Positions 52,449-57,839 of a stretch of DNA of 64,000 bases are shown piece after piece. This stretch comes from Promethearchaeota archaeon (GTDB lineage: Archaea > Asgardarchaeota > Lokiarchaeia > Sigyniarchaeales > SOKP01), in NCBI GenBank assembly GCA_016839705.1, contig JAEOTR010000017.1:55396-119395 (forward strand), written 5' to 3'. Under the pieces are notes generated by a model. The model was given only the letters and a program-made list of their open reading frames with translations, was not told the DNA's origin and did not search any database. The translations under genes and the position numbers were made by a program. Position 1 is the stretch's first letter, and the number at the start of each line of letters is the position of its first letter.

Positions 52449-53126
52449 TTAAAAATAACCGGAAATTGAAACCCCGACCGCTAGTAATAAAAATCCTTGA
52501 ATAAAGCAAAAAACAACAAATATAACAGCTAAGGGTGGCCAAGAAATTGCTTTTGAAATGGTCATAAAGGCTTTTGTATAAAACTTTGCTGTGAGAGCGA
52601 CTATTGCGAAGACTATTATAAATATAATTGCCAGCAATATTTTTGGATTAACAAAGACTGCAATAACATCAACAAGTTGTTGGGGGATTGCAAAAGCTAA
52701 AATAACTACTACTAGAGAAGCAGCTAAAACACCAATTAGACTTGCAAGTGGTAGATCATTAGCGGGTTTAACAAAAGTTAAGATGCCAAACACAATGAGT
52801 AAAATTGAAGTAAAAAGATTACGAGCATTTTCAGTTGTAGTCGCATAAGCTACTGAAGGAGGAATGTCAAACATTAATCCTGAAAAACCAGAAATTAAAC
52901 CTAATAACCCTACAATGAAACCTATATAAGTTAATCCTTTTAAGAACTTTGTTACATCAAATTCTTTATCCCAATCTTCTACTTTTCTTCTTTTAAATGA
53001 CTTTCTCCGTTTTGTTTCGTATGCAGCATAGACTAGCCACATAATCCCCAAAATTAACAGGAACCAGCCTCCGAGTTTCCCTAGCGGTTTTAATATATTT
53101 TCTGTAAAGTCAAATTGAAATATCAA
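52449..53126 (-). CDS. Hypothetical membrane protein
   Basis: About 6 hydrophobic segments. Confidence 0.7.
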   Translation of the reverse strand: MIFQFDFTENILKPLGKLGGWFLLILGIMWLVYAAYETKRRKSFKRRKVEDWDKEFDVTKFLKGLTYIGFIVGLLGLISGFSGLMFDIPPSVAYATTTENARNLFTSILLIVFGILTFVKPANDLPLASLIGVLAASLVVVILAFAIPQQLVDVIAVFVNPKILLAIIFIIVFAIVALTAKFYTKAFMTISKAISWPPLAVIFVVFCFIQGFLLLAVGVSISGYF

Positions 53127-53235
53127 TTATTTTCACTCTTAAATGTAAATTTAGATTTGTTATTATATTGTTTAAACATACTTAAAAATATATTTCAAAG
53201 GGAGTCCAATGATTAAATTTTGGGAATTTAATTTT

Positions 53236-53352
53236 TTATTTGATGAATAAAACAGAATTCTTGATATAATCTAAATAGACTCTAATTTCCTCTTCTTTTT
53301 TATGTTCACTCCAAGAATATTCCTTAGCCATTAATTCAGCAACTTCTTTCAT
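53236..53352 (-). pseudogene. Orphan 3' fragment of a glycerol-3-phosphate dehydrogenase gene
   Basis: MKEVAELMAKEYSWSEHKKEEEIRVYLDYIKNSVLFIK* is 22/38 identical, ungapped, to the last 38 aa of the glpD at 55977, with the stop at the same position. Confidence 0.88.
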
Positions 53353-53543
53353 ATCATTTAGCAGAGATTCCCATTGTCTCACTGTTGGCAACACCCTTAT
53401 ATCTGTTTGATCCCGCAGATACTCTAGACAAGATTCACCAGGACAGTCTTGAACCTATTACTCGAGCGGTCATTCGAATCGTGAATGGGTTAAAAGACTA
53501 TACTGCCCAAGGATTGCGAGGCCTGGTTCGGAAAAAGGAATAA
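53352..53543 (+). pseudogene. GC-rich 3' fragment of a probable M28-type peptidase gene
   Basis: YHLAEIPIVSLLATPLYLFDPADTLDKIHQDSLEPITRAVIRIV...* with no ATG/GTG/TTG between the upstream TAG (53325) and the fragment start; about 46% GC by hand count. Confidence 0.55.
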
Positions 53544-53558
53544 TTAGCGAGATTCCAT
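53358..53558. repeat. Degenerate direct repeat bracketing the GC-rich fragment
   Basis: TTAGCAGAGATTCCCAT (53358-53374) and TTAGC-GAGATTCC-AT (53544-53558). Confidence 0.5.
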
Positions 53559-53769
53559 GAATAGAATTAGTAATTTTCTTATTAACTTTTCTAACATAAG
53601 AAAATTAATAATATTAATATATAAAATTTCTTGGTTATAACCCTATTTTTTAGAATTATTTTTTTAACTATAATTTTTTTTGTATCTTGTAAAATTTTAG
53701 TATTTCAGAGCTTATAAACCTTATTTTTGATTTTCGAGAATTTGAGAAAGCGAAAGAAAACCCAATATA

Positions 53770-53838
53770 CTAACAAAAAAAGTTAGATTATCTATGAAAA
53801 CTAACAAAACTAACAATAAGAAAATTACAAATCTAACA
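53770..53838. promoter_or_regulatory. Clustered CTAACA motifs upstream of the LAGLIDADG gene
   Basis: CTAACA at 53770, 53801, 53810 and 53833, plus inverted GTTAG at 53782. Confidence 0.4.
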
Positions 53839-53907
53839 CTCCGATGGGATATTTAGCCGACTTAAATCTGAGAATTTTGGACAGATTTTTATGGTGACTT
53901 TAAAGAA

Positions 53908-55881
53908 ATGGGTAAAAAAGAAAGGATTTTAGAATTGATTAAAGAATTCGATGGATTAACTTATAATAAAATAATAGATTTGTATAATGAGAGATTTAAG
54001 TCAAGCTCTATTACTAAAGAAACGGGTTATGTTTTCTTATCAAGATTAATAGAAAGCGATTTAGTTACTTCTGAGCCTAAAGATGATGTAAAAGGAAAAT
54101 GCTATTTCTATAAACCTACTCCAAAAGCATTAAATCAAGATGAGATAGTTTCTAATTTAGCAGAATACGTAAATTCTGAAGAGAAGAACAGATTTCTTAG
54201 CAATCGTAAAAATATCTATGTTGTACCTACTAAATGGGTTAAAGTTAAAACTTCAGTACTAAATCAGATTAGAGAAATCTTGAGAGATCGAAATATTAGA
54301 GTCAAGGAAATTAATAAAATTATTGGTCAAGATTTTTCCAAAATATCTAAAGGTCGTCGCATGAAAGAACAGATTTTTTTTAAATTGAATAATTTAGTTG
54401 GAGACAATACATTAAAAAAAATATTTAACCAAGACTTTATACCTCATGATGTTTATATTGGACAAGACAAATATATACCAATAGAAAGAACCGAAATATC
54501 AGCAGAATTTATATCAATAATGCTCGGAGATGGACATCTCGATAAAGACGGAAGTAGTACATCTATTGCACTCAATATTATTGATGACCCTGATTATGTT
54601 AAATATGTTAAAAACGAGATTATTGATAAATTATTCAAAAAAAATTCTATTTTTGTTGAATATTTCGATTACAAGGCTTCTCCAAAATCTGTTGTACTTA
54701 TTTCAAAAAGAAAGTCGGTACATTATGCAATTTATGAATTAGGAAAATCAGTTCAAAAGAAAGGACTTATTCCAGGAAATAAAGTTAAAAATGAAGTAGA
54801 CGTTCCTGATTGGGTTTATTTTGATAAAGCTGAAAACAAGAATTTTTTAATTTCTTCTTTGAGAGGTTTGTTTGATACTGATGGAAGTATTTCTGTTACT
54901 AAGAAGAGAAATACTCTAAACTTAGCATTTTCGAATAGTTCTTTACCTCTTTGTAAAGATTTCATTCATATGTGTTCAATTTTAGGTATAAAGACTGGAA
55001 ATATCATTAAATCGATTAAAGAAAATGGAAATACGGAATATAAAGTTCATATTTCAAGTAAGTCTCAAATTCAGAAATTTTTTAATAAGATAAAGCCTCA
55101 AAAAATAACTGAAGGAAAAAGACGAATTTTTTTAGGATGCCAATTGATCTATCTAAGTTTAGGTAAAGATATAGTAGAATTAATGAAACAAAAAATTAGT
55201 AGATGGAAGAGGAAAAATAATGAAATGATGTTTAAGTATACCAAAAAAAATGCAGATCTACTAAAAGTTTGGTGTGAAACTGAATTTTTAAGAAATAATA
55301 TTAAAAACATATTTGGATATCCTTTCCTAGAAAAGATCACAGATAAAATGATTGATAAAGCAATTTCAGAAGCTTTAGTATATCGATACACTACCTATGA
55401 AAGTGAGAAAGCAAAATTTTATGTTTATTTATATAAAAAGTTAGGAAATCTTTCTAGGATAAGAGAATATTTAAGGGATATTGGTAATAATGTTATTCCA
55501 GATAAGGCGACAATAAAGAAGTATATAATACAATATTTGGGAGAACAAAAAGTGATTGGTTCTAATAATTTTTTTGAGAGAAATAAAATCACAAGTATTA
55601 CTCTTTACGAGGGTACTAATCAAATTAATTCTTTTCCAAGAAAACTGAGAAATATTATATGTGGTGTCTTGTATGATAAACTTCTTAATTTTTCTGTTAA
55701 CGTTAAGAACTCTTTAATAATTGAACAGTTAAAGGCATATTTCATAAATAATGAAATTCTTCTAATGAATTGGCTTTTAGATCAGAAAAAAAATCCTAAC
55801 TTCTCTCAAGCTTTAACGTCTTATTTTAATGATCTTCTTTTTTTAATTAAAGAGATTTTAAACCAGCTTAGTATTAATTAA
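53908..55881 (+). CDS. Free-standing double-motif LAGLIDADG endonuclease-family protein with N-terminal wHTH/HTH domains and a C-terminal extension
   Basis: AEFISIMLGDG and SLRGLFDTDG motifs, FSNSS; no intein splice-junction residues; LTYNKII...LSRLIESDLV winged helix. Confidence 0.85.
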   Translation: MGKKERILELIKEFDGLTYNKIIDLYNERFKSSSITKETGYVFLSRLIESDLVTSEPKDDVKGKCYFYKPTPKALNQDEIVSNLAEYVNSEEKNRFLSNRKNIYVVPTKWVKVKTSVLNQIREILRDRNIRVKEINKIIGQDFSKISKGRRMKEQIFFKLNNLVGDNTLKKIFNQDFIPHDVYIGQDKYIPIERTEISAEFISIMLGDGHLDKDGSSTSIALNIIDDPDYVKYVKNEIIDKLFKKNSIFVEYFDYKASPKSVVLISKRKSVHYAIYELGKSVQKKGLIPGNKVKNEVDVPDWVYFDKAENKNFLISSLRGLFDTDGSISVTKKRNTLNLAFSNSSLPLCKDFIHMCSILGIKTGNIIKSIKENGNTEYKVHISSKSQIQKFFNKIKPQKITEGKRRIFLGCQLIYLSLGKDIVELMKQKISRWKRKNNEMMFKYTKKNADLLKVWCETEFLRNNIKNIFGYPFLEKITDKMIDKAISEALVYRYTTYESEKAKFYVYLYKKLGNLSRIREYLRDIGNNVIPDKATIKKYIIQYLGEQKVIGSNNFFERNKITSITLYEGTNQINSFPRKLRNIICGVLYDKLLNFSVNVKNSLIIEQLKAYFINNEILLMNWLLDQKKNPNFSQALTSYFNDLLFLIKEILNQLSIN

Positions 55882-55976
55882 CATGTTAGTATTCAATCGT
55901 TATCAAAAATAAAAGAAATTCCTTTTAAGTATAGTGTAATTCGAGAAATTTTGAATTATTTAATTTCAGTTATTAT

Positions 55977-57662
55977 TTAAAGTAGAAATTCAAATGTTTT
56001 CTTATTATAATCAAGGTAAGTTTCGATTTCCTGATTCTTTTTATCCTCAGTCCAAGAGTATTCCTTTGTCATAAGTTCTGCTACTTTTTTTGCAGATTCA
56101 AGCACGAAACTCGGAGCTATCCAAAGAGACATCTCAGTTCGACGGCAAAAAACATCAATCAGATGTGGTGTTAATTCGTTTCTTAGACAATAAATTACCT
56201 CAGCTTTAATGAAATTATTTTCAGCAAGAATTTTTTCCTTTAGAGTTTCATCTTCTTTTATAATTTCTAGAATTTTCAATGCACCCTTACCATATTGTTG
56301 ATATAAATGGTCAGCAACATCACTTTCTAGTTTTATCAGTGAATTTTCTAATGATTGTAGCCAATCTTGTTTATCCAAGCTGATTACATAACGTTGTTTA
56401 GAAAAATTCTCATCTCTTTTGATATTCAGATATAAACCTTTTCCAGCTATTTCTTTAAATAAATCTTCCGCCATACTTCGAAATGCTGTTAATTTCCCCC
56501 CTGTTATTGTTACCAATCCATCTTTTGAGAAAAAAATAATATGTTTTCGGGAGATTTCACTTTCAGTTTTACCTTTCTGCATAACTAACGGTCTAATACC
56601 TGCATAAGTTGAGAGAATATTATCATAACCTAGTTCAGCGTTAGGAAAATAATGTTTTACAGATTCTATTAAATAATCAGCATCTTCTTTTTTGCAAAAA
56701 GGAGTTGCTAAATCACCTTGATAATCTGTATCTGTAGTACCGATTATAGTGAAATCTTTATCTCGTGGTAATACAAAAAAAGCTCTTTCATCAGAAATGG
56801 AACGAATTATAGTGGCCATATTGTTTTTAATGTGTTCCCTTCTATATTGTAAATGAACTCCTTTTGTAGGGCGTATAAGTGGCTTAGGAATATCTTCAGG
56901 ATAATTTTCGATTAGTGAGTCGGTCCAAATCCCGGTAGCATTTATTACCAGAACTCCTTGTACTTCAAAACTGTTACCATTTTCTAAATCCTTACATTTT
57001 ACTCCTATTATCTTATCATCATCTTTAATGTATCCGGAGATTTTACAGTAGCTAATAATATCAGCACCTCTGATTACCGCCTCCTTAAGCGTTTCAATAG
57101 TTAATCTAGCATCATCAACATTATTATCGTAATATACCGCGCCACCTTTATTTCCCTCCTTAATAAATTCTGGTTCAAGTTTGACAACTTCCTCCGGGGA
57201 ATACCATTGATGGTTTTTGTAATTTTTAAACTCAGATTTATCTTCACCTAAAAAATCGTATATTTTACAAGCTCCAATTATATCTCGCTTTTTATATTTC
57301 CCTTCCTCTAGTGCAACGAATAAAAATGGGATGGGTCTTACTAAATGGGGGATATGCATCCTCATCCAATTTCTCTCTGTTGTAGATTCTCGTACTAAAT
57401 CCATATCACCATGGCTTAAATATCGTATACCCCCATGTGCGAGCTTTGAACTCCGTGATGATGTCCCTGCAGCAAAGTCTTGCATTTCGATACAAGCAAC
57501 TTTTAATCCTCTTAACGTTGCCTCCCTTGCAATTCCTGCCCCAGTAATTCCTGCACCTATTATTATAATATCGTATTGATTGTTTTGTAACCTTTTAATA
57601 ATAATATCGCGATGTTTATAATTCCATTTTTGATCAAATAACTTCTCAACTAATTCTGTCAT
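55977..57662 (-). CDS. glpD: FAD-dependent glycerol-3-phosphate dehydrogenase/oxidase
   Basis: IGAGITG, GTSSRSSKLAHGGIRYL, DDARL, RPTKGVH, GTTD, GGKLT, RRT; start ATG 57662 or TTG 57671. Confidence 0.93.
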   Translation of the reverse strand: MTELVEKLFDQKWNYKHRDIIIKRLQNNQYDIIIIGAGITGAGIAREATLRGLKVACIEMQDFAAGTSSRSSKLAHGGIRYLSHGDMDLVRESTTERNWMRMHIPHLVRPIPFLFVALEEGKYKKRDIIGACKIYDFLGEDKSEFKNYKNHQWYSPEEVVKLEPEFIKEGNKGGAVYYDNNVDDARLTIETLKEAVIRGADIISYCKISGYIKDDDKIIGVKCKDLENGNSFEVQGVLVINATGIWTDSLIENYPEDIPKPLIRPTKGVHLQYRREHIKNNMATIIRSISDERAFFVLPRDKDFTIIGTTDTDYQGDLATPFCKKEDADYLIESVKHYFPNAELGYDNILSTYAGIRPLVMQKGKTESEISRKHIIFFSKDGLVTITGGKLTAFRSMAEDLFKEIAGKGLYLNIKRDENFSKQRYVISLDKQDWLQSLENSLIKLESDVADHLYQQYGKGALKILEIIKEDETLKEKILAENNFIKAEVIYCLRNELTPHLIDVFCRRTEMSLWIAPSFVLESAKKVAELMTKEYSWTEDKKNQEIETYLDYNKKTFEFLL

Positions 57663-57839
57663 TTCTATCAAATTTTTAAAGTGATTGTTTTTTAATTAAA
57701 GTTATTTTGATTTTAATTTTCTCAAATGTGAATAATCAATTTTTTAAATCCTATTAAGTCGTTATCATCACTGGTGTATTATCTAAGTTTCGAATGGATG
57801 TACTAATTAATATAACGAAATTATGAACCTTCTTATTTC

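Follow-up and report, generated by a model that had tools for sequence, protein, structure and literature searches.

Mobile elements that leave a displaced host-gene end behind them have been described in several settings. In Escherichia coli, the integrase-bearing elements e14 and phage 21 supply icd with a replacement 3' end, while the old end is displaced behind the element. The mitochondrial atp6 gene of Allomyces macrogynus is reportedly accompanied by a mobile endonuclease open reading frame (ORF) with a C-terminal duplication. Such duplications have also been described for the mitochondrial atp6 and cob genes of Endoconidiophora (PMC6279837), and the WHO elements of Torulaspora and Lachancea yeasts reside at FBA1 (Coughlan et al. 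2020, PMC7282813; Osborne et al. 2026, bioRxiv 10.64898/2026.08.13.744650), with no mention of archaea in the latter paper. T4-like phages possess free-standing endonucleases that support intronless homing, and one-sided repair of homing breaks is known from them (PMC2988022); the glycosylation islands of Haloferax contain free-standing intergenic LAGLIDADG_2 genes with non-coding flanks and no displaced ends (PMC5867893). Here we describe a 64,000-nucleotide stretch of DNA from a Promethearchaeota archaeon (GenBank assembly GCA_016839705.1, contig JAEOTR010000017.1, positions 55,396 to 119,395; henceforth the window), in which a free-standing LAGLIDADG gene lies between a complete glpD gene and an orphan second glpD terminus. 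Sequence comparisons suggest that this is probably a WHO-like homing element in an Asgard chromosome, with its movement being driven by its nuclease. The original prediction from this DNA had likened it to elements at fungal atp6; the same scar is indeed seen in fungal mitochondria, but among characterised systems the WHO elements of yeasts come closest. No relevant paper on such elements in Asgard or other archaea was found in the literature that could be searched, which was largely without subscription journals. Gene-end-replacing homing being known from yeasts and fungal mitochondria, its occurrence on an archaeal chromosome would appear to be new in that literature.

The glpD gene (57671-55977, minus strand) encodes a 564-residue FAD glycerol-3-phosphate dehydrogenase with the Pfam domains DAO and DAO_C. 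Its host part, codons 1-518 (56119..57671), closes with the conserved block RRTEMSLWI, and 56119 is the final base that it has in common with the glpD alleles of relatives lacking the element (empty alleles). From 56118 (codon 518) to 55977 there follows a foreign 3' end of 47 codons (518-564) and the stop, in which the protein reads WIAPS where empty alleles have WI[S/D/H]HK. Convergent with glpD lies a two-motif LAGLIDADG gene of 657 codons (53908..55881, plus strand; Pfam LAGLIDADG_3, E 5e-15), and the ORF and Pfam matches bear out the earlier description of an intact glpD ending at 55977 with an inverted nuclease gene next to it. An AT-rich spacer 5' of the nuclease start (53544..53907, 23% G+C), the presumed promoter region, and the last 63 codons of an M28-family peptidase gene (53352..53543, plus strand, 43% G+C), a stub that the original prediction had overlooked, separate the nuclease from the orphan glpD end (53236..53350, minus strand), to which the stub is directly joined. 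The two glpD ends are identical at 22 of 38 amino acids and 76 of 117 nucleotides, align without gaps and have the same stop position; none of 100,000 shuffled sequences reached 22 matches, the maximum being 12. The duplication and its ungapped match therefore stand as predicted, but the orphan had been placed at 53352-53236 and the second end at 38 codons from 56093, whereas true homology of the orphan begins at 53350, 27 further bases of it are gone, and the foreign end is the longer one given above. Beyond the orphan lies a gene for a 225-residue membrane protein (52449..53126, minus strand), which directly follows glpD in relatives with an empty site. We found no terminal repeats above chance around the element, and scans for sigma-70 promoters and terminators stayed at or below chance, the bacterial promoter model being uninformative for the spacer.

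A layout of this kind could also be produced by tandem glpD paralogs of which the second had lost most of its length, or by a chimeric assembly, and the contamination of the bin (6.8%) and a secondary deletion by which the shortened orphan came to abut the M28 stub speak for such an origin. Contig support across the junctions, which had been named as a check, came from three public samples of a single study (X1, X2 and X3), one of which is possibly the source of the assembly, with the whole locus in no single contig. Their contigs match the window with 0 differences over the orphan/spacer/nuclease junctions (53186-55070 in X1, 53297-53690 in X2 and 53186-53589 in X3) and over the junction of the nuclease with the glpD stop (55093-56288, 55151-56076 and 55354-56089, respectively). 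As these contigs cover the junctions and the same layout recurs in two other assemblies, an assembly artefact is unlikely, and the duplicated glpD end is confirmed as a real feature. In 31 relatives from the genus (class Promethearchaeia) we observed one glpD, then about 110-150 bp, then the 225-residue membrane protein gene, and no genus relative examined had a second full glpD at the locus. The intergenic sequence and the gene behind the orphan are those that lie behind glpD in the empty alleles. Furthermore, GlpD from empty sites continues after SLWI with [S/D/H]HK and closes with a VSFI-like terminus, the orphans are alike in this, and in a tree of the glpD ends the orphan of the window's own genome (G000) groups with that of another occupied genome (G077) and with the end from G027. 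The C-terminus carried by empty-site relatives is thus of the orphan type and, judged by its sequence, the orphan is the resident glpD end. Because the empty relatives have a single glpD whose end corresponds to the orphan and not to the current end, the truncated paralog offered earlier as the alternative fails, and we regard paralogy or chimerism as exceedingly improbable.

A further public run from another study (X4) yielded four contig variants that join 56119 to 53343-53350 via 27-34 in-frame bases and read as an empty glpD allele, and the same run gave short 98-99% matches to the nuclease gene. These contigs were matched at 85% stringency and may derive from related species; occupied and empty forms of the allele are hence both represented in X4, possibly from such species. 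Separately, an empty-type glpD end, about 52 codons long, was noted out of place on a contig of another genome that is unrelated to glpD, with no nuclease seen nearby (L032:8220-8424, contig C30 of G021). The region corresponding to 52449-57671 of the window is strongly mosaic, in that glpD and the downstream membrane protein gene differ in their nearest relatives in many genomes.

Three other loci, those of the genomes G018 and G077 and of a metagenome contig (L232, henceforth M232), carry the same nuclease convergent with glpD. Their nucleases are 74%, 89% and 91% identical, respectively, to that of the window (74-93% across all four), and their GlpD proteins continue after WI with APS or TPN. 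When the foreign glpD end was used as the query, G018 and G077 were the only further occupied loci recovered. The window's current end is 86-92% identical in nucleotides to those of G018, G077 and M232 and at most 68% identical to any empty allele; mutually, the four ends are 81-92% identical, with at most 70% identity to any empty allele. The separate trees for the body and the end of glpD that had been proposed as a check are in conflict: the four current ends form a clade with support of 100/99, while a clade of the four bodies is rejected (approximately unbiased test, p=1e-4), with the bodies of G000 and M232 grouping with empty-site G027, that of G018 with G002, G004 and G025, and that of G077 elsewhere. 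Likewise, pairing of a current end with its own orphan is rejected for G000 (p=0.006) and for G018 (p=6e-10). The same end and nuclease have spread into glpD alleles of different ancestry.

The cleanest case is that of G018 because G002 provides a close proxy for its empty allele, with 88% identity over the glpD body and 95% over the orphan. Informative sites in G018 are resident-like up to codon 512 and element-like from codon 518, and the orphan restarts at codon 519, with about 3 resident bases lost and the join lying in the middle of the nuclease ORF. The orphan of G077 begins 6 bases before that of G018, and the DNA on its element side is unrelated. Upstream and downstream switches in G018 thus both fall at codon 518-519, as does the orphan start of G077; in both genomes the 3' fragment of the host gene starts where occupied and empty alleles diverge, and in the window it is 27 nt shorter. 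These loci show insertion at one site, replacement of the gene end and retention of the old one. Retention of resident sequence on both sides up to one point is the pattern that would be expected from the repair of a break. In G077, tracts resembling G000 flank the island (codons ~480-518 on one side, the orphan and the intergenic sequence on the other), with the next gene being 82-95% like those of G021 and G061, which suggests two-sided co-conversion, though the glpD of G077 is mosaic in any case. As a side observation at the G018 junction (L031:7060-7070), the antisense of the first orphan bases gives the truncated nuclease ORF an in-frame ATG.

At the site itself, 9 of the 22 bases around the junction differ between occupied and empty alleles, all in its right half, and the nearest other genomic match to this 22-base target has 18 matching bases. 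We propose that the mobile unit comprises the replacement glpD 3' end, the convergent LAGLIDADG gene and the cargo behind it. The nuclease would cut empty alleles at TGG-ATT-AGY-CAT or no more than a few bases away, and the break would then be repaired from an occupied allele. Its upstream side would pair with the conserved RRTEMSLWI block and copy the new end, by which the right half of the site would be destroyed. Its downstream side might pair with the orphan of the donor, acting as a second homology arm (two-sided repair, as G077 suggests), or might be joined without homology (one-sided repair, as in G018); the mid-ORF junction of G018 is what illegitimate repair from one side would leave, a fate of homing breaks that is known from phage T4.

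The same junctions could be read with the nuclease as a mere passenger, such that foreign DNA with a glpD tail integrated by homology-facilitated illegitimate recombination and was then spread by allelic exchange. The RRTEMSLWI block would in that case be a crossover hot spot rather than a cut site, and the block that holds the left crossover is indeed the best conserved one in its vicinity, with the 24 bp to the left of the junction ranking in the 98th percentile for conservation within glpD. Mosaicism across the genus is also seen in glpD and its flanks. Such passive integration leaves unexplained why the downstream joins of G018 and G077 fall within 6 bases of the same point with almost no resident loss, and together with the evidence from other loci given below this makes us consider it unlikely, if not negligibly so.

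The nuclease core was modelled with confidence (predicted template modelling score 0.79), and although a search of PDB sequences with the core profile gave no match, a fold search matched the Tli VMA intein endonuclease, I-Tsp061I, PI-PfuI and PI-SceI, with WhiA also among the matches. The acidic motif residues D208 and D325 are present in the window and are nearly invariant across the family. The ratio of nonsynonymous to synonymous substitution rates among the four nuclease copies is 0.24-0.60 over residues 191-657, and the purifying selection extends to the 240 non-catalytic C-terminal residues. We could detect neither a Hint domain (Pfam) nor an HN[C/S/T] motif in the nuclease, and no zinc finger by Pfam, its C-terminus being helical. 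An intein-encoded (DOD) endonuclease was considered and set aside, as the gene lies on the strand opposite to glpD and splicing motifs are absent; its fold is nevertheless like that of intein endonucleases. Group I, group II and archaeal introns were likewise set aside, with no credible Rfam match and a glpD that is complete without splicing. As for a structured RNA in the G+C-rich spacer, two chance Rfam snoRNA hits were obtained, and this spacer is the M28 peptidase stub.

Residues 72-657 of the window's nuclease correspond to the tail of a 1,421-residue protein of G077, the first ~800-815 residues of which consist of acidic repeats and a coiled trunk. In the window this trunk has been swapped for about 75 new N-terminal residues (53908..54132), which are helical and weakly winged-helix-like. 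This lineage-specific segment has no relatives in 53 genus genomes, is modelled with low local confidence, and gave Atlas matches of 0.81-0.83, all below 0.9; its winged-helix reading stays a guess because there is no genus relative and the Atlas matches all lie below 0.9. At the other terminus, 33 residues are missing from the window's protein because CAA has become TAA at 55879-55881. The former last 32 codons (55882..55980, plus strand) are read through in G077, G018 and M232, where the gene runs up to the glpD stop, and the former nuclease stop overlaps the glpD stop in a common TTAA.

The M28 stub is 57-71% identical to the C-terminus of ~480-residue genes with a Pfam Peptidase_M28 domain from 14 genus genomes, and no full copy was found in the window's assembly. 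We take the stub to be leftover cargo, as its sequence suggests, and a secondary deletion probably ran from inside this cargo gene to 27 bases into the orphan, which would account for the shortness of the latter. The insert between the two glpD stops measures 2,383 bp in G018, 2,741 bp in G000 and 12,498 bp in G077. By these comparisons the window's copy is a reduced remnant of a larger island of variable length (2.4, 2.7 and 12.5 kb in the three genomes), which would later have lost most of its cargo, the nuclease trunk and the 27 orphan bases. The earlier claim of a homing cassette without intron or intein is accordingly supported in its essence, but there is no neat, fixed cassette. The full-length island of G077 (L132:2872-15115, about 12.4 kb) contains, ahead of the gene for the giant LAGLIDADG-tipped protein, a HerA-like ATPase, a NosD-like beta-helix gene and, besides these, two unclassified ORFs, the first with membrane-like segments. 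An integrase-type island or transposon was examined as a candidate and rejected, with no recombinase or transposase among the island ORFs. This sets the element apart from e14 and phage 21: neither the G077 island nor the window has an integrase, at glpD an att core would amount to at most 3 shared bases (GAT), and the distal ends of the glpD islands vary, one of them lying inside an ORF.

A HerA/VirB4-like ATPase gene occurs 5' of the giant form of the nuclease in at least 8 loci at different sites. This raises the alternative that the full module, with its membrane ATPase-like genes, HerA/VirB4-like ATPase and giant protein, serves mainly in DNA transfer, secretion or defence, or that the protein is a domesticated WhiA-like regulator. 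In that case the insertion in glpD would be incidental, and what the window contains would be a relic or a regulator. Besides the ATPase, the helical N-terminus gained in the window, the WhiA fold match and the selection on the non-catalytic C-terminal residues lend it some weight. As in WhiA/DUF199, a free-standing LAGLIDADG fold is combined with extra helical domains. However, WhiA has lost cleavage (PMC7282813), whereas both acidic motif residues are kept across the present family, the distribution of which is patchy and the insertion sites many; moreover, shorter versions lacking both the trunk and the ATPase are found at many sites, and the same scars accompany them. We therefore hold a primary role of this kind to be quite improbable, though it is compatible with homing, as the module may deliver the donor DNA.

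To place the glpD locus in context we surveyed the family at other gene ends. Single-protein pattern searches of the genome contigs found no relatives, but whole-genome and alignment searches did, and a profile search detected relatives in 59 of the 161 genomes of the class, all from a single family, with the sites varying. Of the 77 distinct family loci, 11 have a gene on one side and a stub of that gene's terminus on the other, and in 9 of these the duplicated gene is the direct neighbour of the nuclease. In all, family nucleases flank the duplicated ends of nine other host-gene termini. The compact layout seen at glpD recurs at genes for a MoxR-type AAA ATPase (L103, L106), an ERCC4 nuclease (L233), a molybdopterin oxidoreductase (L237) and an acyl-CoA dehydrogenase (L386). 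A co-oriented version is found at a thiolase gene (L249, two thiolase stubs) and a metallo-beta-lactamase gene (L340, two metallo-beta-lactamase stubs), and a 5'-end version at an AAA_5 gene (L099), an ERCC4 gene (L319) and an acyltransferase gene (L342). At the AAA-ATPase site the element-side junction is common to two hosts, while their orphans differ and are resident-type; an overlap of about 20 bp makes the case regarding an att core less clear there. The nuclease clades track the neighbouring gene, as simple descent of the loci would also produce. The survey of termini misses short or diverged stubs, and some of its hits are false.

The occurrence of homologous nucleases beside duplicated gene ends, another check that had been proposed, is therefore observed, and when only loci flanked on each side by 1.5 kb or more are counted, 7 of 42 nucleases lie between duplicated ends against 15 of 463 other ORFs (odds ratio 6, nominal p 0.001), with the reservation that these loci are not independent. 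This six-fold enrichment, the direct adjacency and the site-specific clades are not predicted if the nuclease is a passenger. That reading does gain from the nuclease-free end scars, which are common in G000 and in related loci (L103 has two more). These scars are one of several points that weigh against nuclease-driven homing, of which the non-independence just mentioned is another. In G000 there are 28 duplicated-terminus hits (some spurious) enclosing 39 of 2,900 ORFs, nearly all without this nuclease, so that end replacement can do without it. No duplicated end was detectable at 66 of the 77 family loci, many contigs being short; the fixed site at glpD rests on only two informative downstream junctions; and the full form, a 1,420-residue giant with a HerA/VirB4-like ATPase as its neighbour, is more than simple homing would call for. 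The host evidently makes end scars itself, and the nuclease may exploit this route or merely ride along. Even so, we favor homing by the nuclease at glpD as the probable explanation. More tentatively, Promethearchaeia could harbor a radiating WHO-like family, in which a giant-protein LAGLIDADG tip and a HerA/VirB4-like ATPase integrate multi-gene islands with no integrase, intron or intein, each lineage having its own target gene and a resistant copy of its 3' or 5' end; we view this broader picture as possible but doubtful.

The anatomy of the glpD element agrees with the WHO model in every point. Both have a two-motif LAGLIDADG gene of the intein type, putatively allele-specific here, that is transcribed apart from the host gene, sometimes inverted, without splicing; in both the nuclease gene has on one side a full-length but chimeric host gene and on the other a piece of its 3' end, which begins where the cut is presumed to be; and both combine discordant trees for the two ends of the host gene with a replacement 3' end and an old end that serves, here putatively, as second homology arm. 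Unlike WHO, it is located on an archaeal chromosome, with no known meiosis to bring alleles together; its family is found at many host genes, including 5' ends, and in its full form the nuclease makes up the tip of a giant protein, encoded in a cargo island that also bears an ATPase. With glpD rather than FBA1 as target, neither zinc finger nor Hint domain detected, and one orphan per glpD locus in three genomes rather than a tandem cluster, it is not a member of the WHO family proper, and the likeness drawn here is one of anatomy. The fungal mitochondrial elements similarly place an endonuclease gene next to an intact gene, with a duplicated C-terminal piece on the far side, but are organellar, usually with short ORFs, and have no cargo genes. 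In common with the T4 and Haloferax genes, the glpD element lacks an intron or intein, would gain immunity via a variant allele of the neighbouring gene, and may have its flanks or island co-converted; those genes differ in being intergenic, with a distant cut site and no displaced gene end.

If the homing reading is true, a strategy with a counterpart in yeasts works on the prokaryotic chromosomes of Asgard archaea, relatives of eukaryotes, and on many target genes. Two alleles must meet in one cell for homing to occur, and the spread from lineage to lineage is therefore a pointer to DNA being exchanged often among uncultured Promethearchaeia. The proposal is directly testable, as the predicted cut lies within ~6 bases and natural alleles predicted to be sensitive or resistant are at hand. 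The family also constitutes a pool of ~75 distinct meganuclease-like cores, some with targets that can be read from the genome. Should the island reading hold, such islands would make up a self-targeting class that does without an integrase and may even transmit itself, and they would be among the sources of the many gene-end scars seen here.

Several further loci of the family deserve mention. The nucleases of L100, L101 and L102 belong to one clade and always stop 112 bp short of etfB; they differ in 5' length (496, 820 and 1,131 residues), and no duplicated end was detected at these three. The AAA-site nuclease of G068 (L106:6973-8004) contains an interrupting stop codon, which points to decay once it had inserted, and an 84-codon remnant of a second family member is present in G000 (C25:74122-74385). 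A sequence 99% identical to the G018 nuclease (L388:2-1352) has its first motif missing and a C2H2-like short ORF before it, on a short and possibly chimeric contig. The locus L103:886-11975 (thiolase, AAA ATPase, VWA) has three terminus duplications, namely those of the AAA start, the AAA end (around the nuclease) and the VWA start. A 246-residue gene lies 3' of a family nuclease in L385:13085-14726, with its last 30 codons duplicated around a 204-residue ORF that is not the nuclease. Finally, duplicated termini surround nuclease-free cargo on the G000 contigs C11, C25, C32, C34, C56, C73, C81 and others, including, at about 6.7 kb on C32, the duplicated start of a 401-residue gene that by eye is tyrosyl-tRNA-synthetase-like.

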